Source of the DNA: an uncultured Candidatus Saccharibacteria bacterium
GTDB lineage: Bacteria > Patescibacteriota > Minisyncoccia > Phycocordibacterales > UBA12088
Assembly: GCA_964409035.1 (NCBI GenBank)
Contig: CAYPBQ010000003.1
Coordinates: forward strand, 41,530 to 105,529
DNA: 64,000 bases
Direction: 5' to 3'
A program made the position numbers and the translations under genes. Shown piece by piece: positions 2,984 to 64,000 of this stretch (the first letter of the stretch is position 1; each line of letters starts with the position of its first letter). Under the pieces are notes generated by a model that worked only from the letters and a program-made list of their open reading frames with translations, made no database searches and was not told the DNA's origin.

Positions 2984-4747
2984 GTGATCAATATGTCGCT
3001 TGATGCCGTACAGCAAATAAAAGACAGAGTAGACATAGTCGAACTTATTGGTTCGTATGTACGGCTTACAAAGGCAGGAAGGTCATACAAGGGATTGTCT
3101 CCTTTTAAAAAGGAAAAAACACCCTCGTTCTACGTATCTCCGGATAAGGGTATGTACTACTGTTTCTCTACCAACAAAGGTGGTGACATATTTACCTTTG
3201 TTGAAGAGATGGAGAGGGTGGATTTTCAAGGAGCACTTAGGTTACTCGCTGAAAGAGCAGGTATCACTCTAACAAATGAGCTTAAGGAGGATAAAAACTC
3301 ACGTGAGAGACTCTTTGCAATACTTGAGCGAGCTGCAAATCTTTATGCTAAGGAACTTGCGACAAATACCGAAGCTCTTGAGTACATACAAAAGCGTGGT
3401 TGTACCCCTGACACAATTAAAACGTGGGGTATTGGTTACGCTCCTGAACCAAAAAAGAAAGGGTGGACATTTATCTTTGACGCTCTTTGTAAAGAGGGTT
3501 TTGAACCACATGAAATTGAGCGTGTTGGGCTGATAAAGAGAAAGGATGATACTGCAACTGGCACCCCATATGACAGATTCAGATCAAGAATAATGTTTCC
3601 TCTTAAGGATGTGTCTGGTCGGGTTGTGGGATTCTCAGGAAGACTTTTTCCAGATGACAAAAGTGGACTCTCACCCAAGTATCTAAATAGCCCAGAAACA
3701 CCTCTATATCACAAGTCCTCGTTACTGTATGGCATAGATAAGGCAAAACAGGCAATGCGTAAACATGACTTTGCTATTTTGGTAGAAGGACAAATGGACC
3801 TTGTCTTGTCGCATCAAAGTGGATACGCAACCACCGTTGCGGTATCGGGTACAGGACTTACCAATGAGCATATGGATATAGTAAGTAGAATGACAAAAAA
3901 GGTGGTACTCGCGTTTGATGCAGATAGTGCAGGTATTGCCTCCACTCACAAAGCCGGTATTCTTGCGCTTAAAAGGGGTATGGAGGTTAAAGTTGCCGTA
4001 CTACCAATGGGAGTAGATCCCGCGGATATGATACGAGAGAATGCTGAGGATTGGAAAAGTGCTATCAGAGAAGCGTTGCCCCTTATAACTGTTGCAATGC
4101 AAAACGCAAAAGTAGGAGCAAAAAATGAACAAGCACTAGTGCGCAATTTACGAGAACAAGTGCTTCCCCTTATTGCAGCAATGCCAAATAGTATGGACAG
4201 ATCACTTTTGGCGAGAGAAGTATCTGAGTTTGCTCGTCTTCATAATGATACAGTGTACGAAGAGGTTGAAAAAATCCGTCAACAAAAATCGTTTGGTGAT
4301 CAAGATATTGATGTGGTGCGTGGTGTGGAATTAGAGAGCGGTGCGCAGATTATGACAAGACGTGCCGGTCTTGAAAGGGTGGTGGCGGGGTTTATGATTC
4401 GCGCGCAGGTAGATAAAGAGGTGCAGTACGACTCATTAACTGCAGATGTAGCGTTAGCATTAAGAGGTACATCGGTGCAAGAATTACTTAGTAGGTATAG
4501 TGATGATAGAGCACTACCATTTGAGATAGAAATGATGCTTGAAGGATCGATGCATAAAGTGGCGCTTGTCAAAGATGCGGTATATGATTTACGATTAGTA
4601 ACAATTAAGGATACATTTTTTGATGTATCAAAGGCATTACGCCTCGCAGAGGAAGAAGGGGATCAAGAAAAGCAAGTAACATTACTATCAACGCTACATC
4701 AACTAACAAAGGAGCTTACTGAGTTACAAGCTGTTACTCGTAAGTAA
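2984..4747 (+). CDS. dnaG: DNA primase
   Basis: N-terminal primase zinc-finger-like region ('KEKTPSFYVSPDKGMYYCF') and Toprim motifs 'EGQMDLVLSHQ...AVSGTG...VLAFDADSAG'; sits between rpoC and rpoD. Confidence 0.9.
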   Translation: MINMSLDAVQQIKDRVDIVELIGSYVRLTKAGRSYKGLSPFKKEKTPSFYVSPDKGMYYCFSTNKGGDIFTFVEEMERVDFQGALRLLAERAGITLTNELKEDKNSRERLFAILERAANLYAKELATNTEALEYIQKRGCTPDTIKTWGIGYAPEPKKKGWTFIFDALCKEGFEPHEIERVGLIKRKDDTATGTPYDRFRSRIMFPLKDVSGRVVGFSGRLFPDDKSGLSPKYLNSPETPLYHKSSLLYGIDKAKQAMRKHDFAILVEGQMDLVLSHQSGYATTVAVSGTGLTNEHMDIVSRMTKKVVLAFDADSAGIASTHKAGILALKRGMEVKVAVLPMGVDPADMIRENAEDWKSAIREALPLITVAMQNAKVGAKNEQALVRNLREQVLPLIAAMPNSMDRSLLAREVSEFARLHNDTVYEEVEKIRQQKSFGDQDIDVVRGVELESGAQIMTRRAGLERVVAGFMIRAQVDKEVQYDSLTADVALALRGTSVQELLSRYSDDRALPFEIEMMLEGSMHKVALVKDAVYDLRLVTIKDTFFDVSKALRLAEEEGDQEKQVTLLSTLHQLTKELTELQAVTRK

Positions 4748-6113: not shown

Positions 6114-6692
6114 CTATTCTGGACGCATGCACACCATCATAATCTCATCGTCATATTTTCCTGGAGATAGATAAAGCCAATTGGCTATTCTTCCTATCTC
6201 TACAAATCCACACCTTTCGTATACCTTCCTTGCAGCGATATTGTTTCCATAGAGACATAATTCAACTCCACGCAAATCAAGAGTATTGAACGCGTAGGTA
6301 AGAATCAGTGACGTTGCTTCGGTTCCATACCCCTTTCCCCAAGAGTTTCTATCTCCAATAGTAAGTCCAAAACTTGCGGTACGGTCTCTTTGCGTGTTGT
6401 TCCATCCGAGTCCTGTTGTCCCAATAAGTGTGGTTCCACCTTTTGGAACTATTCCAAGTGTAAGACCATTTTTCCTTTCTGCCATAGACTCTATCCATCT
6501 TTCCTCCGCCCCAATATGGAGGGGCAAGTATCGTAGTAGATATCGTGTTACTGCAGAATCATTCATGTATGTGGCGAGGGTTCGTGCATCACCTTTTTCT
6601 ATGATAACAAGGTCTATTTTAGACCCAGTAATCAAAACAATACGAGACTCTTCACGAGTGGCGCTGGCGGTTGTCATGTCAAAGAACTCCAC
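6114..6692 (-). CDS. GNAT-family N-acetyltransferase (RimJ/RimL-like)
   Basis: Acetyl-CoA binding motif 'WGKGYGTEATSLILTYAFNTLDLRGVELCLYGNNIAARKVYERCGF'. Confidence 0.8.
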   Translation of the reverse strand: MEFFDMTTASATREESRIVLITGSKIDLVIIEKGDARTLATYMNDSAVTRYLLRYLPLHIGAEERWIESMAERKNGLTLGIVPKGGTTLIGTTGLGWNNTQRDRTASFGLTIGDRNSWGKGYGTEATSLILTYAFNTLDLRGVELCLYGNNIAARKVYERCGFVEIGRIANWLYLSPGKYDDEIMMVCMRPE

Positions 6693-6918
6693 ATTAGCTG
6701 AACAGGCATTTGTTCAGCTTTAGAGATTCAATACTTGTTATAGATAGGAGAGAGATTGAATAGCCACAGCCAAACAAAGCGATAATAGGGTAGTAGGGAG
6801 CATTCCTGAACAATAGGAAACTCGCGCCCACATAATCGCGTCTACTTTTTTATGCTGTTGTGGATATATTCGATCCATGTGTTACATCTACAATACTTTA
6901 AAATACTTGTCAATAAAA

Positions 6919-61116: not shown

Positions 61117-61191
61117 GGCCCTATCGTCTAACGGTTAGGACGGAGCCTTCTCAAGGCTTAAATCGGGGTTCGATTCCCCGTAGGGTCACCA
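61117..61191 (+). tRNA. tRNA-Glu (anticodon CUC) with encoded CCA
   Basis: 'GGCCCTATCGTCTAACGGTTAGGACGGAGCCTTCTCAAGGCTTAAATCGGGGTTCGATTCCCCGTAGGGTCACCA'; anticodon loop UUCUCAA; T-loop TTCGATT. Confidence 0.85.
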
Positions 61192-61225
61192 ATTAGAGAA
61201 CTAGTTCGAGCACTCGAGAAGGCTC

Positions 61226-61258
61226 GGATTTAGAGGAAAAGAGTAGGTCTGTATAAGA
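61226..61258 (+). terminator. Hairpin terminator after tRNA-Glu
   Basis: 'AAGAGTAGGTCTGTATAAGATCTACTCTTTTCG'. Confidence 0.6.
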
Positions 61259-61348
61259 TCTACTCTTTTCGTATTATGTACGCATCAGGTGACCAAGAAC
61301 TCTGCTCGGCTACAAGCTCCCTTTATACATTATCCCTCTTTCACTAGG

Positions 61349-61941
61349 CAAACTGTGGCGTCGCTTCGGAACGGCGACGGACAATTGCGGAGTATGTTTT
61401 CCATACAGGCATACTTGTTCTACATTCGCTCACATTGAATTTTGAAACCACGTACTTGCATTTACGATAATATGGCTATAAATAAGGACTTAGGTAATAA
61501 ATATCTGCAAATGATAAGGAACAAAACCTAATTAAGAACAAGATACGTTCGTGGAGTTTCACCTCCGACCGTTTGCTGGCCTGTTCCATTTCCGTACTTT
61601 TGGCTCCAAGACGTCGGATATATGCTTAAATATAAGGGTATTGTTTAAAGTATTACGACCAAACTGTGGCGTCGCTTCGGAACGGCGACGGACAATTGCG
61701 GAGTATGTTTTCCATACAGGCATACTTGTTCTACATTCGCTCACATTGAATTTTGAAACCACGTACTTGCATTTACGATAATATGGCTATAAATAAGGAC
61801 TTAGGTAATAAATATCTGCAAATGATAAGGAACAAAACCTAATTAAGAACAAGATACGTTCGTGGAGTTTCACCTCCGACCGTTTGCTGGCCTGTTCCAT
61901 TTCCGTACTTTTGGCTCCAAGACGTCGGATATATGCTTAAA
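61349..61941. repeat. Perfect tandem duplication: two ~283-bp copies (61349-61631 and 61659-61941) separated by 27 bp
   Basis: Both copies begin 'CAAACTGTGGCGTCGCTTCGGAACGGCGACGG...' and end '...GACGTCGGATATATGCTTAAAT'; every block compared by eye is identical. Confidence 0.85.
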
Positions 61942-62061
61942 TTCTAGTTTTCTTCTCTAAAAGAAGCACTTTACTGCTGATGTTGTTATTTGCTGAGGAT
62001 GTACTTGCGCCTTAAAAGCATTTCTGTATAATAAAGATGTAACCCATTAACCATTTTATAT

Positions 62062-62457
62062 ATGAACACGACACCTAACCCTCTAGACGCACTTCTTACT
62101 GATGATGCAGCAACAAACCGCGAACAGTTGGCAGCATTGGTTGGACCATTCGTAAAAATCGTAAAGGATTCAAAGGAGTTTGAATTTCTCCCCGCTTTCT
62201 CCAAGCTCGATAACAGCTCAAAGGTAGAAATCATGTTGGCCGCTAGTAAGGCTCGCGCACTTCTCTTTGATGAAACCGACGGCCTTGCCCCTTCCGAAAT
62301 CATCGCGACGCAGGTGATGACTGAGGGTTCAACAAAATCGGCGATCAAAAGTCTTTTTGATGGACGCAAGATCAAGAAGAACAAGGAAGGTAAAAAATAC
62401 ATTTTGCCACCCTACCGTATTCCCGAGCTTGTTGAAAAATTTATCAAAAGTAACTAA
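62062..62457 (+). CDS. Hypothetical protein (131 aa), gene 1 of 4-gene operon
   Basis: ORF; 9-nt gap to next gene. Confidence 0.4.
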   Translation: MNTTPNPLDALLTDDAATNREQLAALVGPFVKIVKDSKEFEFLPAFSKLDNSSKVEIMLAASKARALLFDETDGLAPSEIIATQVMTEGSTKSAIKSLFDGRKIKKNKEGKKYILPPYRIPELVEKFIKSN

Positions 62458-62466
62458 TACACACTT

Positions 62467-62844
62467 ATGGAAACAAATGAACAACGTATATCTGCATTGG
62501 AATCCCGCGTAAAAACACTTGAAGCACTGATCCTTAATGCCGATGCTCCCACAGTAAACGTAAATAGGAAGGAAAAGACCCTTCGAGAAATCATAAAAGG
62601 AAAGAAATTTAATGGGCAGGAGCAGGTTGCTGCTATCGTTGGCTATCACGAAAAGATTCTCGGTCAGGCTGTTCACAAAAATGAGATCAAAAATGCATGG
62701 CAGGAAGCAAAAATGAATGGAAAGTACGCAGCCATCTATCTGACCCGAGCGCAAAAAGACGCGCTTGTACGTATTCTTGCTGATGACACATGTGACCTTA
62801 CTCAAACTGGAGAAGATTTTTTTGACGGATTACTAACTAATTAA
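62467..62844 (+). CDS. Hypothetical protein (125 aa) with N-terminal coiled coil
   Basis: 'ETNEQRISALESRVKTLEALIL' heptad-like. Confidence 0.4.
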   Translation: METNEQRISALESRVKTLEALILNADAPTVNVNRKEKTLREIIKGKKFNGQEQVAAIVGYHEKILGQAVHKNEIKNAWQEAKMNGKYAAIYLTRAQKDALVRILADDTCDLTQTGEDFFDGLLTN

Positions 62845-62851
62845 AATTGAT

Positions 62852-63442
62852 ATGGAATCAGAAGAAATAAAAAAGAATATCTCCTTGGCGCTCGAGGCTG
62901 TCGAAGAGATGCAGGACAAAGAACTGAAGGCTGTTGCTTTCAGTGTTGTGCTTGAACAGATGCTTATAACATCACTTCCAGATCAGAATAAGGTCCATAC
63001 TCCAAGTAAAGCGCCCCTAAGAAATGACGTTGTTCCGAGCTTGTCACCGACCATTAGGATGTCTCCGGCTTTGAGTTCCTTGCCTATTACACAGGAGCAA
63101 CTATCAGAAATTTATGAAGTGAATGGTGATGAGCTCAGATTGCGAGTAAAGGTAAATGATGTGAAGAATTCAGAGCAGCAACGGAAGCTTGCGCAAGCTA
63201 TGCTTTTTGGCTACAAAGTGCTCCTTGATGAAAAGGACGTAAAGGGCTCAAAATTGCTTATTACTGCAAAAGAATGGGATATCCCTACTGATCATTTCGT
63301 GAAGAACATCAAGGGTAATAAGAAAAATCCAAACAAGTACGTAGATATCCGAAATACTGGTAAGGGAAAAGATCCAATCTTTTCCCTTAGACCAGGAGCT
63401 CTCAATAAACTGGTAGACGAAGTGAAGGCGCTCGCTTCCTAG
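62852..63442 (+). CDS. Hypothetical protein (196 aa)
   Basis: ORF; 8-nt gaps on both sides. Confidence 0.4.
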   Translation: MESEEIKKNISLALEAVEEMQDKELKAVAFSVVLEQMLITSLPDQNKVHTPSKAPLRNDVVPSLSPTIRMSPALSSLPITQEQLSEIYEVNGDELRLRVKVNDVKNSEQQRKLAQAMLFGYKVLLDEKDVKGSKLLITAKEWDIPTDHFVKNIKGNKKNPNKYVDIRNTGKGKDPIFSLRPGALNKLVDEVKALAS

Positions 63443-63450
63443 CTTTTACT

Positions 63451-64000
63451 ATGAATCCTCTAGTACAACACCTAAAGAATCTGCCGAATGATCTAGTTAC
63501 CGCACTACAGACGGAATTTCAAAAACTGCATCAGCAATATTTTCTCGGGAAGTGGGAGCCGGCCCAACTAAACGGAGGACGCTTTGGTGAAGCAGTTTTG
63601 CGCATCGTGGAGTATAAAGACACCAATAAGTTCACACCTGTAGGCACTCAATTGAACCGTAAGCAAATAGTAAATAGCGTTGCACAAAATACGGCACTTC
63701 CAAAATCATTGCGACTTCAGATACCAACACTCGCAGAACTGGTTATGGATTTTCGTAATGATAGGAATGTGGGACATCTTGGGACAATTGACGTTAACGA
63801 GATGGATTCTGCCTTTGTACTCAATGCAACTAATTGGATCGTGGCTGAGCTAATTCGACTAGAGACACAGATGAGTCCATCTGATGCTCAAGCAGAGATC
63901 AAGAAGATCATCGAGCGAAAAGTACCAATTGTCGAGGAAATAGGGGGTCGCTTGAAATGTCTAAATCCGAAATTAGACGCAAAGACCAAAGCTGTGGTTT
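63451..64000 (+). CDS. Hypothetical protein with R-x6-H (HEPN-like) motif; 3' end beyond window
   Basis: Open frame from ATG 63451 to window end (not in ORF track because no stop); 'FRNDRNVGHLG'. Confidence 0.4.
   Translation, partial: MNPLVQHLKNLPNDLVTALQTEFQKLHQQYFLGKWEPAQLNGGRFGEAVLRIVEYKDTNKFTPVGTQLNRKQIVNSVAQNTALPKSLRLQIPTLAELVMDFRNDRNVGHLGTIDVNEMDSAFVLNATNWIVAELIRLETQMSPSDAQAEIKKIIERKVPIVEEIGGRLKCLNPKLDAKTKAVV

Follow-up and report, generated by a model that had tools for sequence, protein, structure and literature searches.

We analyzed a 64,000-nt stretch of DNA from an uncultured Candidatus Saccharibacteria bacterium (assembly GCA_964409035.1, contig CAYPBQ010000003.1; hereafter the window), in which a 283-nt unit, called unit X, occurs as two direct copies between a tRNA-Glu gene and a cassette of four genes of unknown function. 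We found that the two copies are identical at every position, that the same arrangement is present in a diverged lineage, and that close relatives of that lineage carry a single copy. The explanation that we favor, and consider probable if by no means assured, is that unit X is non-coding cis-regulatory DNA whose duplication, upstream of a mobile cassette associated with restriction-modification genes, is real, homogenized by recombination and unstable in copy number. Homologous recombination between the 283-nt copies, by unequal crossing-over or gene conversion, would homogenize them, and the same recombination would delete one copy together with the spacer between them, leaving a one-copy state that could not regenerate that spacer. 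Positions are those of the window, and the loci fetched for comparison are designated by L numbers.

Reality of the duplication and its probable homogenization

A repeat finder, a script and Tandem Repeats Finder (TRF) agree in placing copy 1 of unit X at positions 61349-61631 and copy 2 at 61660-61942, while the script and the relatives' loci define a unique 28-nt spacer between them (ATAAGGGTATTGTTTAAAGTATTACGAC, 61632-61659; no strand is assigned to these three features). TRF reports a period of 311, 1.9 copies, 100% matches and a score of 1188. A perfect repeat of 283 nt cannot be a product of chance. The pair is the sole direct or inverted repeat of at least 30 nt in the whole window, and the unit has no further occurrence there, which argues against a common dispersed repeat. 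The original prediction, made from the letters alone, had described two perfect copies just downstream of tRNA-Glu (anticodon CTC, 61117-61191), a GC hairpin in each unit (CGTCGCTTCGGAACGGCGACG, found at 61359-61379 and 61670-61690) and an operon of unannotated genes beyond the repeat, which begins at 62062; all of this holds. Its coordinates were exact for copy 1 and off by one base for copy 2 (61659-61941), and its spacer of 27 bp is in fact one nucleotide longer.

The repeat does not consist of integral head-to-tail periods. It spans only 1.91 periods, and the spacer is repeated neither before copy 1 nor after copy 2, the flanks being unrelated to it. A script found no match between the sequences that flank copy 1 and those that flank copy 2. 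The upstream flank U (61192-61348), which lies between tRNA-Glu and copy 1, is unique; the proposal that U and the downstream flank D are diverged extra copies of unit X was rejected by local alignment against shuffled sequences (z ~0).

The unit-spacer-unit layout of the window recurs in an independent assembly. The Joint Genome Institute (JGI) contig L004, from sample 3300025323, carries a unit that is 92.9% identical to that of the window (20 of 283 positions differ), and 2 of the 28 spacer positions differ between the two. Recovery of the junction in a diverged lineage, with divergence in proportion (2/28 versus 20/283), leads us to reject an assembly artefact, which the original prediction had left open. 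In addition, the Logan contigs (k = 31) that match the window at 100% identity start exactly 30 nt short of where the unit ends, while in JGI sample 3300002502 one contig stops at the unit's last base and a second opens 101 nt before the unit's end and runs on into the operon. Contigs built with short k-mers break at the unit's end because a true repeat breaks them there in a de Bruijn graph. A read or a large k-mer, moreover, exceeds the spacer in length, and the junction of unit end, spacer and unit start must therefore exist in the DNA. Taken together, these independent assemblies, the co-diverged spacer and the breaks in the assembly graph indicate that the duplication is genuine. The copy number read from assemblies is to be understood as two or more.

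Copy number is polymorphic among close relatives. Six contigs (L001, L002, L003, L005, L006 and L010) carry one copy of the unit, 92.9% identical to that of the window, and the two copies of L004 are identical both to each other and to this single-copy version. Two-copy L004 is 100.000% identical to one-copy L001 and L003 over 6741 + 9116 nt. On the evidence of these contigs, copy gain or loss is shown to outpace point mutation, with loss placed within the time of less than one substitution in 16 kb.

The adjacent direct copies within a genome are also more alike than their orthologues. Paralogues show 0 differences in the window and 0 in L004, compared with 20 of 283 between the two lineages; with 7% divergence, a 283-nt pair free of differences has a probability of ~1e-9 per lineage. 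Identity within genomes despite 20 differing sites between lineages implies that the copies have been homogenized by recombination, and we infer concerted evolution through unequal crossing-over or gene conversion. Active homogenization was among the possibilities first raised for this repeat, and the identity of paralogues in each of two lineages that share the unit-spacer-unit layout bears it out.

The spacer indicates how often the duplication arose. It is absent from the single-copy relatives, and no other occurrence was found in the window or in any fetched locus; the 28 nt are, by this comparison, new junction DNA. Because the window and L004 share this junction DNA, the duplication arose once, before their divergence. 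These comparisons are taken to show a single old duplication that predates the split of the window lineage from the L001/L004 lineage.

The ends of the unit have no significance apart from the duplication. The more distant locus L019 (71-79% identity) shows the order tRNA-Glu, terminator hairpin, a single unit, operon, and its homology to the window is unbroken through U, X and D, across both unit ends. In single-copy L001, homology likewise continues through both ends. Therefore, the unit ends are endpoints of the duplication only, and not the ends of a mobile element. The suggestion that the copies are att-type repeats consequently fails, as they enclose only 28 nt and the homology with a single-copy relative runs through both of their ends; as att sites they would also bracket no element, the recombinase remnant described below lying outside the repeats, about 2.5 kb downstream.

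The one-copy allele lacks the spacer and therefore cannot re-expand to the unit-spacer-unit form. Nevertheless, the two-copy form has been kept in both lineages despite easy loss, which hints at selection, or at re-supply through recombination between cells.

In the L001/L004 lineage, the unit's last 10 nt (ATGCTTAAAT) are tandemly duplicated exactly at its 3' boundary (L001:9861-9880, corresponding to window positions 61933-61942), which adds a second small rearrangement to this junction.

A scan of a genome collection for unit X found only the L001-type metagenome-assembled genome (MAG), a reference MAG labeled Candidatus Paceibacterota, and a scan of a metagenome collection yielded two JGI contigs and nothing else. 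IMG/VR does not contain the unit, and a blastn search of positions 61200-64000 against phage and plasmid collections gave no match.

Candidate non-coding signals in the repeated unit

Comparisons among loci attach unit X to the cassette. In L016/L017, a setting free of any tRNA in which hsdM and hsdS of a Type I restriction-modification operon flank the cassette, the core of the unit (see below) plus its GAACAAAAC and AGAACA blocks are kept upstream of the cassette. Together with the continuous homology of L019, this retention identifies the unit as the cassette's upstream DNA; judged from these loci, it belongs with the upstream region of the cassette and not with the tRNA.

The small open reading frames (ORFs) of the unit (76, 67, 49, 37 and 29 aa) were rejected as genes. 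The two that span a junction (67 and 76 aa) had no Pfam match and a single marginal PHROG match (E 0.036), and the small reading frames are broken in L001 and L019, as read from the alignments.

The unit contains several sequence signals, all described here on the + strand. A promoter-like site found by consensus match, TTGAAA-18 nt-GATAAT, lies at 61442-61471 and again at 61753-61782 in copy 2, and its TTGAAA is retained in the window, L001 and L019. Directly downstream of the -10-like hexamer, the alignment reveals an invariant 19-nt core (ATATGGCTATAAATAAGGA, 61470-61488, copy 61781-61799), which has 2 matches in the 64 kb compared with 0.05 expected. A second ATAAATA box (GGTAATAAATA, 61493-61503) follows 21 nt after the first, and an 8-bp inverted pair (CTTGTTCT, 61414-61421; AGAACAAG, 61535-61542) flanks the core. 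Besides the core, the blocks that are invariant across four lineages are GGAACAAAAC (61518-61527) and the AGAACA within the AGAACAAG 8-mer. Outside the repeat, ~30 nt upstream of gene 1, lies a proximal extended -10 promoter element (TGTATAAT, 62025-62032, + strand) that is conserved in L019-L023.

In the mechanism that we propose, each unit would contribute the distal promoter-like site, the 19-nt core, the second box 21 nt downstream and the flanking inverted 8-mers. Two units would double these cis-regulatory sites upstream of the cassette's extended -10 promoter, and the doubled sites would be expected to alter the strength or the tightness of cassette expression. We conclude that unit X is probably cis-regulatory DNA (a distal promoter and/or operator sites) doubled by duplication, with an effect on expression that is inferred only. 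The idea of a duplicated promoter or leader, put forward in the original prediction, is thereby upheld: the unit is a conserved non-coding region upstream of the operon and includes a promoter-like site. The persistence of two copies in two diverged lineages, despite easy loss, further suggests that the two-copy state may be favored.

The core of the unit has exact counterparts in viral DNA. The 19-nt core, extended to ATATGGCTATAAATAAGGATAT, is present in four otherwise unrelated IMG/VR contigs (L024 at 9346 on the reverse complement, L025:1742, L026:2459, and L027:401 and 541; exact matches). Three of the four have terS-like, terL and portal genes 150-700 nt downstream of it. The core includes TATAAATA, which is the T4 late-promoter consensus at -13 to -6 (PMC1524935). 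Unit X and T4-type late promoters share this consensus, but the conserved block of unit X is far longer than its 8 bp, and the comparison is one of motifs, made with no search for a gp55-like factor. A literature search for the longer core motif found no paper. The positions of the core in these contigs suggest that it may act as a phage-type promoter or as a packaging-region signal.

Long perfect repeats also precede the cassette in two other lineages. In L028, the 1.34-Mb contig of GCA_964596525.1, perfect 95-nt repeats (6223-6317 and 6642-6736) surround a 324-nt insert of 15.6% GC; the proximal promoter has its -35 hexamer within these repeats, which stop 53 nt short of gene 1, and a Logan contig assembled from a different sample has its start 30 nt ahead of the end of the repeat. 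L032 has perfect repeats of 52 nt (4102-4153 and 4456-4507) on either side of 302 nt, ~80 nt before gene 1. Repeats and inserts of L028, L032 and the window are mutually unrelated in sequence, and none of the three is a simple head-to-tail array (1.91 periods in the window, 1.23 in L028 and 1.15 in L032). No such long repeat was found upstream of the cassette in L019, L016/17, L018 or L030. In all of the DNA fetched (~370 kb with redundant copies, ~200 kb non-redundant), the other perfect repeats of at least 40 nt amount to one 40-mer. Given this rarity elsewhere, the association of long perfect repeats with the upstream DNA of the cassette is unlikely to be due to chance. The recurrence may reflect selection that favors a duplicated upstream region, or illegitimate joining during horizontal replacement of the cassette.

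Competing explanations and comparable systems

Several considerations weigh against a homogenized, cis-regulatory duplication as we have described it. Promoter-consensus matches are not enriched in the region (3 found compared with 5.0 expected), and the conserved proximal promoter lies outside the repeat, so that the unit may be dispensable for transcription. A single origin assumes that the spacer was not templated from a locus elsewhere in both complete genomes. Re-supply through recombination among cells could maintain a neutral duplication, and some of the one-copy and two-copy contigs that we treat as independent may be re-assemblies of related samples.

The most serious rival accepts the same homogenized duplication but regards it as functionally neutral, a by-product of illegitimate recombination or template switching that has been kept by drift or hitch-hiking. 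In its favor, the duplication leaves the proximal promoter and the genes unaltered, single-copy alleles are common in otherwise clonal DNA, and the 28-nt junction filler is what an illegitimate event would be expected to leave. However, the one-copy state is absorbing and quickly reached, and yet the two-copy form is found in two lineages that have diverged by 4-7%. Neutrality also sits poorly with long perfect repeats that are otherwise absent from ~200 kb of non-redundant DNA and yet occur upstream of the cassette in three lineages. We consider a neutral duplication unlikely, though it deserves serious attention.

A bolder extension is that the upstream region of the cassette is a hotspot of an undescribed DNA rearrangement, or a selected copy-number switch, and that the cassette is perhaps a phage-sensing defense module whose sensor or promoter dosage is tuned as repeats are gained and lost. 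Repeats in three lineages, combined with a core that also heads the packaging module of unrelated phages, make such a module possible, and we regard this extension as doubtful.

An improbable alternative, slightly less credible again, is that the repeats are the footprint of a cassette-linked insertion of DNA (28 nt here and 302-324 nt elsewhere) just ahead of the cassette promoter, with a long target duplication, which could come about by homology-facilitated illegitimate recombination during horizontal cassette replacement or through an unknown element. It would account for the recurrence, in L028 and L032, of a repeat-insert-repeat-promoter-cassette layout with unrelated sequences, for the lack of a simple head-to-tail array among the three, and for their association with a cassette that occupies differing contexts and is evidently exchanged. 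Against it, these loci yielded neither a transposase nor inverted termini, no insert had a second copy, the inserts lack mutual similarity, and an insertion alone does not explain identical paralogues after 7% divergence. We know of no bacterial transposable element with target duplications of 52-283 bp, which counts further against an insertion.

Next, the unit could be the gene of a small or structured non-coding RNA (ncRNA) in two copies, for example a regulator or an antitoxin RNA of the cassette. The promoter-like site points towards the operon, the invariant core directly follows the -10-like hexamer, and repeats upstream of a defense-type operon recall type III toxin-antitoxin loci. Each unit also contains the GC hairpin noted above (CGTCGC-TTCGGAACG-GCGACG, + strand), and at its position in L019 hairpin potential is present, although out of register. 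An Rfam search of 58-64 kb at E<=1, however, returned only the tRNA and no RNA family in the unit. Its folding is no better than that of shuffled sequences (z +0.69 on the + strand and -0.34 on the - strand), and alignment folding of both strands gives a covariation term of ~0, with 2-4 compensatory pairs among the 57-61 predicted (three alignable lineages, and hence low power). No terminator-like site was found between the unit and the operon. Consequently, the structured ncRNA envisaged by the original prediction finds little to recommend it, and we consider an ncRNA gene very unlikely.

Finally, an assembly artefact, whether a graph loop wrongly traversed or a chimera of strain variants, is scarcely credible. 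In its favor are the metagenome-type assembly of the window, the perfection of the repeat, the single copy in most related contigs and the fragmentation of short-k assemblies at this position. However, the real 28-nt spacer can be spanned together with both unit ends by one short read or k-mer, the layout was recovered independently with proportionate divergence, the contig breaks are the outcome of a true repeat, and the window has no other long repeats.

Other classes of repeat were rejected on inspection. A clustered regularly interspaced short palindromic repeats (CRISPR) array would comprise several short repeats (about 23-50 nt), spacers of similar size and cas genes, whereas the window has two 283-nt repeats around a single 28-nt spacer, and its neighborhood gave no cas-like match in Pfam or PADLOC. 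A dispersed insertion sequence (IS) or miniature inverted-repeat transposable element (MITE) would have terminal inverted repeats, a short target duplication and several dispersed copies, but unit X was found nowhere else in the window or the fetched loci, and long inverted repeats are lacking.

As a type of feature, the repeat is already known and fairly ordinary; what is undescribed is the unit, the cassette and the recurrence of the repeats. Intergenic tandem duplications and variable-number tandem repeats (VNTRs) evolve in concert, as in the mycobacterial interspersed repetitive units (MIRU-VNTR), and gene conversion occurs in duplicates such as tufA/tufB. Unit X resembles a VNTR in that head-to-tail copies occupy an intergenic or leader position, copy number varies between otherwise identical strains, and the paralogues of the window and L004 are closer than their orthologues. 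MIRU-VNTR-type units are roughly 40-100 bp, whereas the period here is 311, with only 1.9 periods, a unique 28-nt insert and a one-copy state that cannot re-expand.

Adaptive duplication of promoter regions belongs to the duplication-amplification model of enterobacteria. As in that model, the duplicated DNA lies upstream, has a promoter-like site, is unstable and lost by homologous recombination, and has possible dosage effects downstream. In contrast to that model, the duplication here does not extend to the genes, it is old (the lineages that share it are 7% apart) and not transient, and there is filler at the junction.

In ToxIN-like loci, repeats upstream of the toxin gene encode an antitoxin RNA, and the ToxI repeats of ~34-45 nt are present in several copies followed by a terminator. 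The likeness lies in direct repeats just upstream of a small operon and in the setting of a defense island. We rejected a ToxIN-like type III toxin-antitoxin system because the unit is 283 nt long, relatives have a single copy, no terminator was found before the operon, and the operon proteins have no Pfam or PADLOC match and include no ToxN-like protein.

The crr of satellite phage P4 consists of two ~120-bp direct repeats with a short spacer and Rep-binding iterons. Unit X likewise forms a pair of long direct repeats around a short spacer, carries two ATAAATA boxes at a spacing of 21 nt (in helical register) and lies in a mobile-element context. It differs in that no replication initiator is encoded nearby and the recombinase is decayed, and an iteron role for the boxes is putative.

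The repeat has several implications. For genome quality control, it illustrates that a perfect tandem repeat in a metagenome-derived genome of the Candidate Phyla Radiation (CPR) can be real and can cause contig breaks at its position in other assemblies. It provides a clear natural case of concerted evolution combined with very fast turnover of copy number, involving a long non-coding unit, in the Patescibacteria, for which, to our knowledge, no experimental genetics is available. It also draws attention to an undescribed, Patescibacteria-wide cassette whose neighbors include restriction-modification genes of Type I and Type ISP and which also occupies a tRNA-linked island. If the repeats do tune a defense-type module, phase or dosage variation would proceed by units of hundreds of bases, and not by the usual short sequence repeats.

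The cassette and the tRNA-Glu island

The cassette comprises four consecutive genes on the + strand. Genes 1 to 3, delimited as ORFs and examined by family searches, encode proteins of 131 aa (62062-62457), 125 aa (62467-62844) and 196 aa (62852-63442), all of unknown function. Gene 4 (63451-64000), defined by its ORF, an alignment and a structure model, encodes a protein of 250-252 aa and is cut by the end of the window. Searches of Pfam, PHROGs, PADLOC, NCBIfam and PDB sequences returned nothing informative for the cassette proteins.

Protein 1 belongs to a small family of 12 clusters, and its identical 131-aa sequence is encoded on >20 contigs from many samples; its structure model (predicted local distance difference test, pLDDT, of 61.6) is too low for use. 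Protein 4 belongs to a family of at least 160 clusters (E <= 0.001), whose members, among the matches listed (the best 120 of 160), are almost all 250 aa long and are spread across Patescibacteria. It has no Pfam domain. Its model (pLDDT 85) has an N-terminal helical domain, which contains an invariant DFRNxRNVGH motif (RNxRNxxH), and a C-terminal winged helix, which in the model matches the DNA-binding domains of MarR, IclR and CggR. We suspect that protein 4 may be a HEPN-like nuclease, HEPN-domain RNases being characterized by an Rx4-6H motif in a four-helix bundle. A tblastn search of protein 4 against phage and plasmid collections gave no match.

The cassette occurs beside Type I restriction-modification genes in L016 and L018, beside a Type ISP enzyme and a DUF2779/Cas4-like nuclease in L032, and as a stand-alone cassette in L028 and L030. 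With genomic contexts that differ in this way, it has evidently been exchanged horizontally. Upstream of the cassette in L030 (L030:4400-4760), two small hicAB-like toxin-antitoxin genes are apparent from reading the sequence and are noted as candidates only.

The tRNA-Glu(CTC) gene at 61117-61191 (+ strand) was identified by ARAGORN and Rfam. It is followed, within flank U, by a terminator-like hairpin (61236-61270, + strand; repeat finder and terminator scan), and in L019 the corresponding position holds a hairpin whose stem differs in sequence. Upstream of the tRNA lies a cell-division and cell-wall cluster with MraZ, an RsmH-type methyltransferase, a transpeptidase and a Mur ligase. For an 89-aa ORF that is also upstream of the tRNA, an exact-protein look-up found nothing on record.

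The 3' end of the tRNA is a site of integration. The window becomes homologous to the L001-type genomes ~10 nt inside this end, where these genomes have a 6.2-kb element inserted exactly at the 3' end of tRNA-Glu (core AGGTCAC; window 61181-61191; L002:3184-9430). The element encodes a 518-aa large serine recombinase, a 635-aa OLD-family nuclease and small ORFs. In L001-type genomes, the tRNA-Glu gene consequently lies 6.2 kb further upstream of the shared region, and the window represents the empty site. Window-type Logan contigs are interrupted where the tRNA ends (window position 61189), which suggests population heterogeneity at the integration site. The OLD-nuclease element also contains a perfect 40-nt direct repeat (L001:5803-5842 and 6463-6502) around a 200-aa gene, at a spacing of 660 nt.

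Towards the right, homology between the window and the L001-type genomes ends inside the gene of another large serine recombinase. This downstream recombinase is intact in L002 (426 aa, L002:12166-13446). In the window-type contig L007, it is present as a 174-aa C-terminal remnant (L007:2321-2845), ~2.3-2.9 kb past the repeat and beyond the end of the window. As a recombinase reduced to a remnant stands beside the cassette, the cassette sits within a decayed integrated element, or a defense island, at tRNA-Glu.

Elsewhere in the window, a stretch of ~8 kb (29000-37800) has a G+C content of 0.35-0.39, compared with ~0.42-0.46 in the remainder, and ends beside tRNA-Asn (37735-37807, minus strand). 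It may be another tRNA-linked island.

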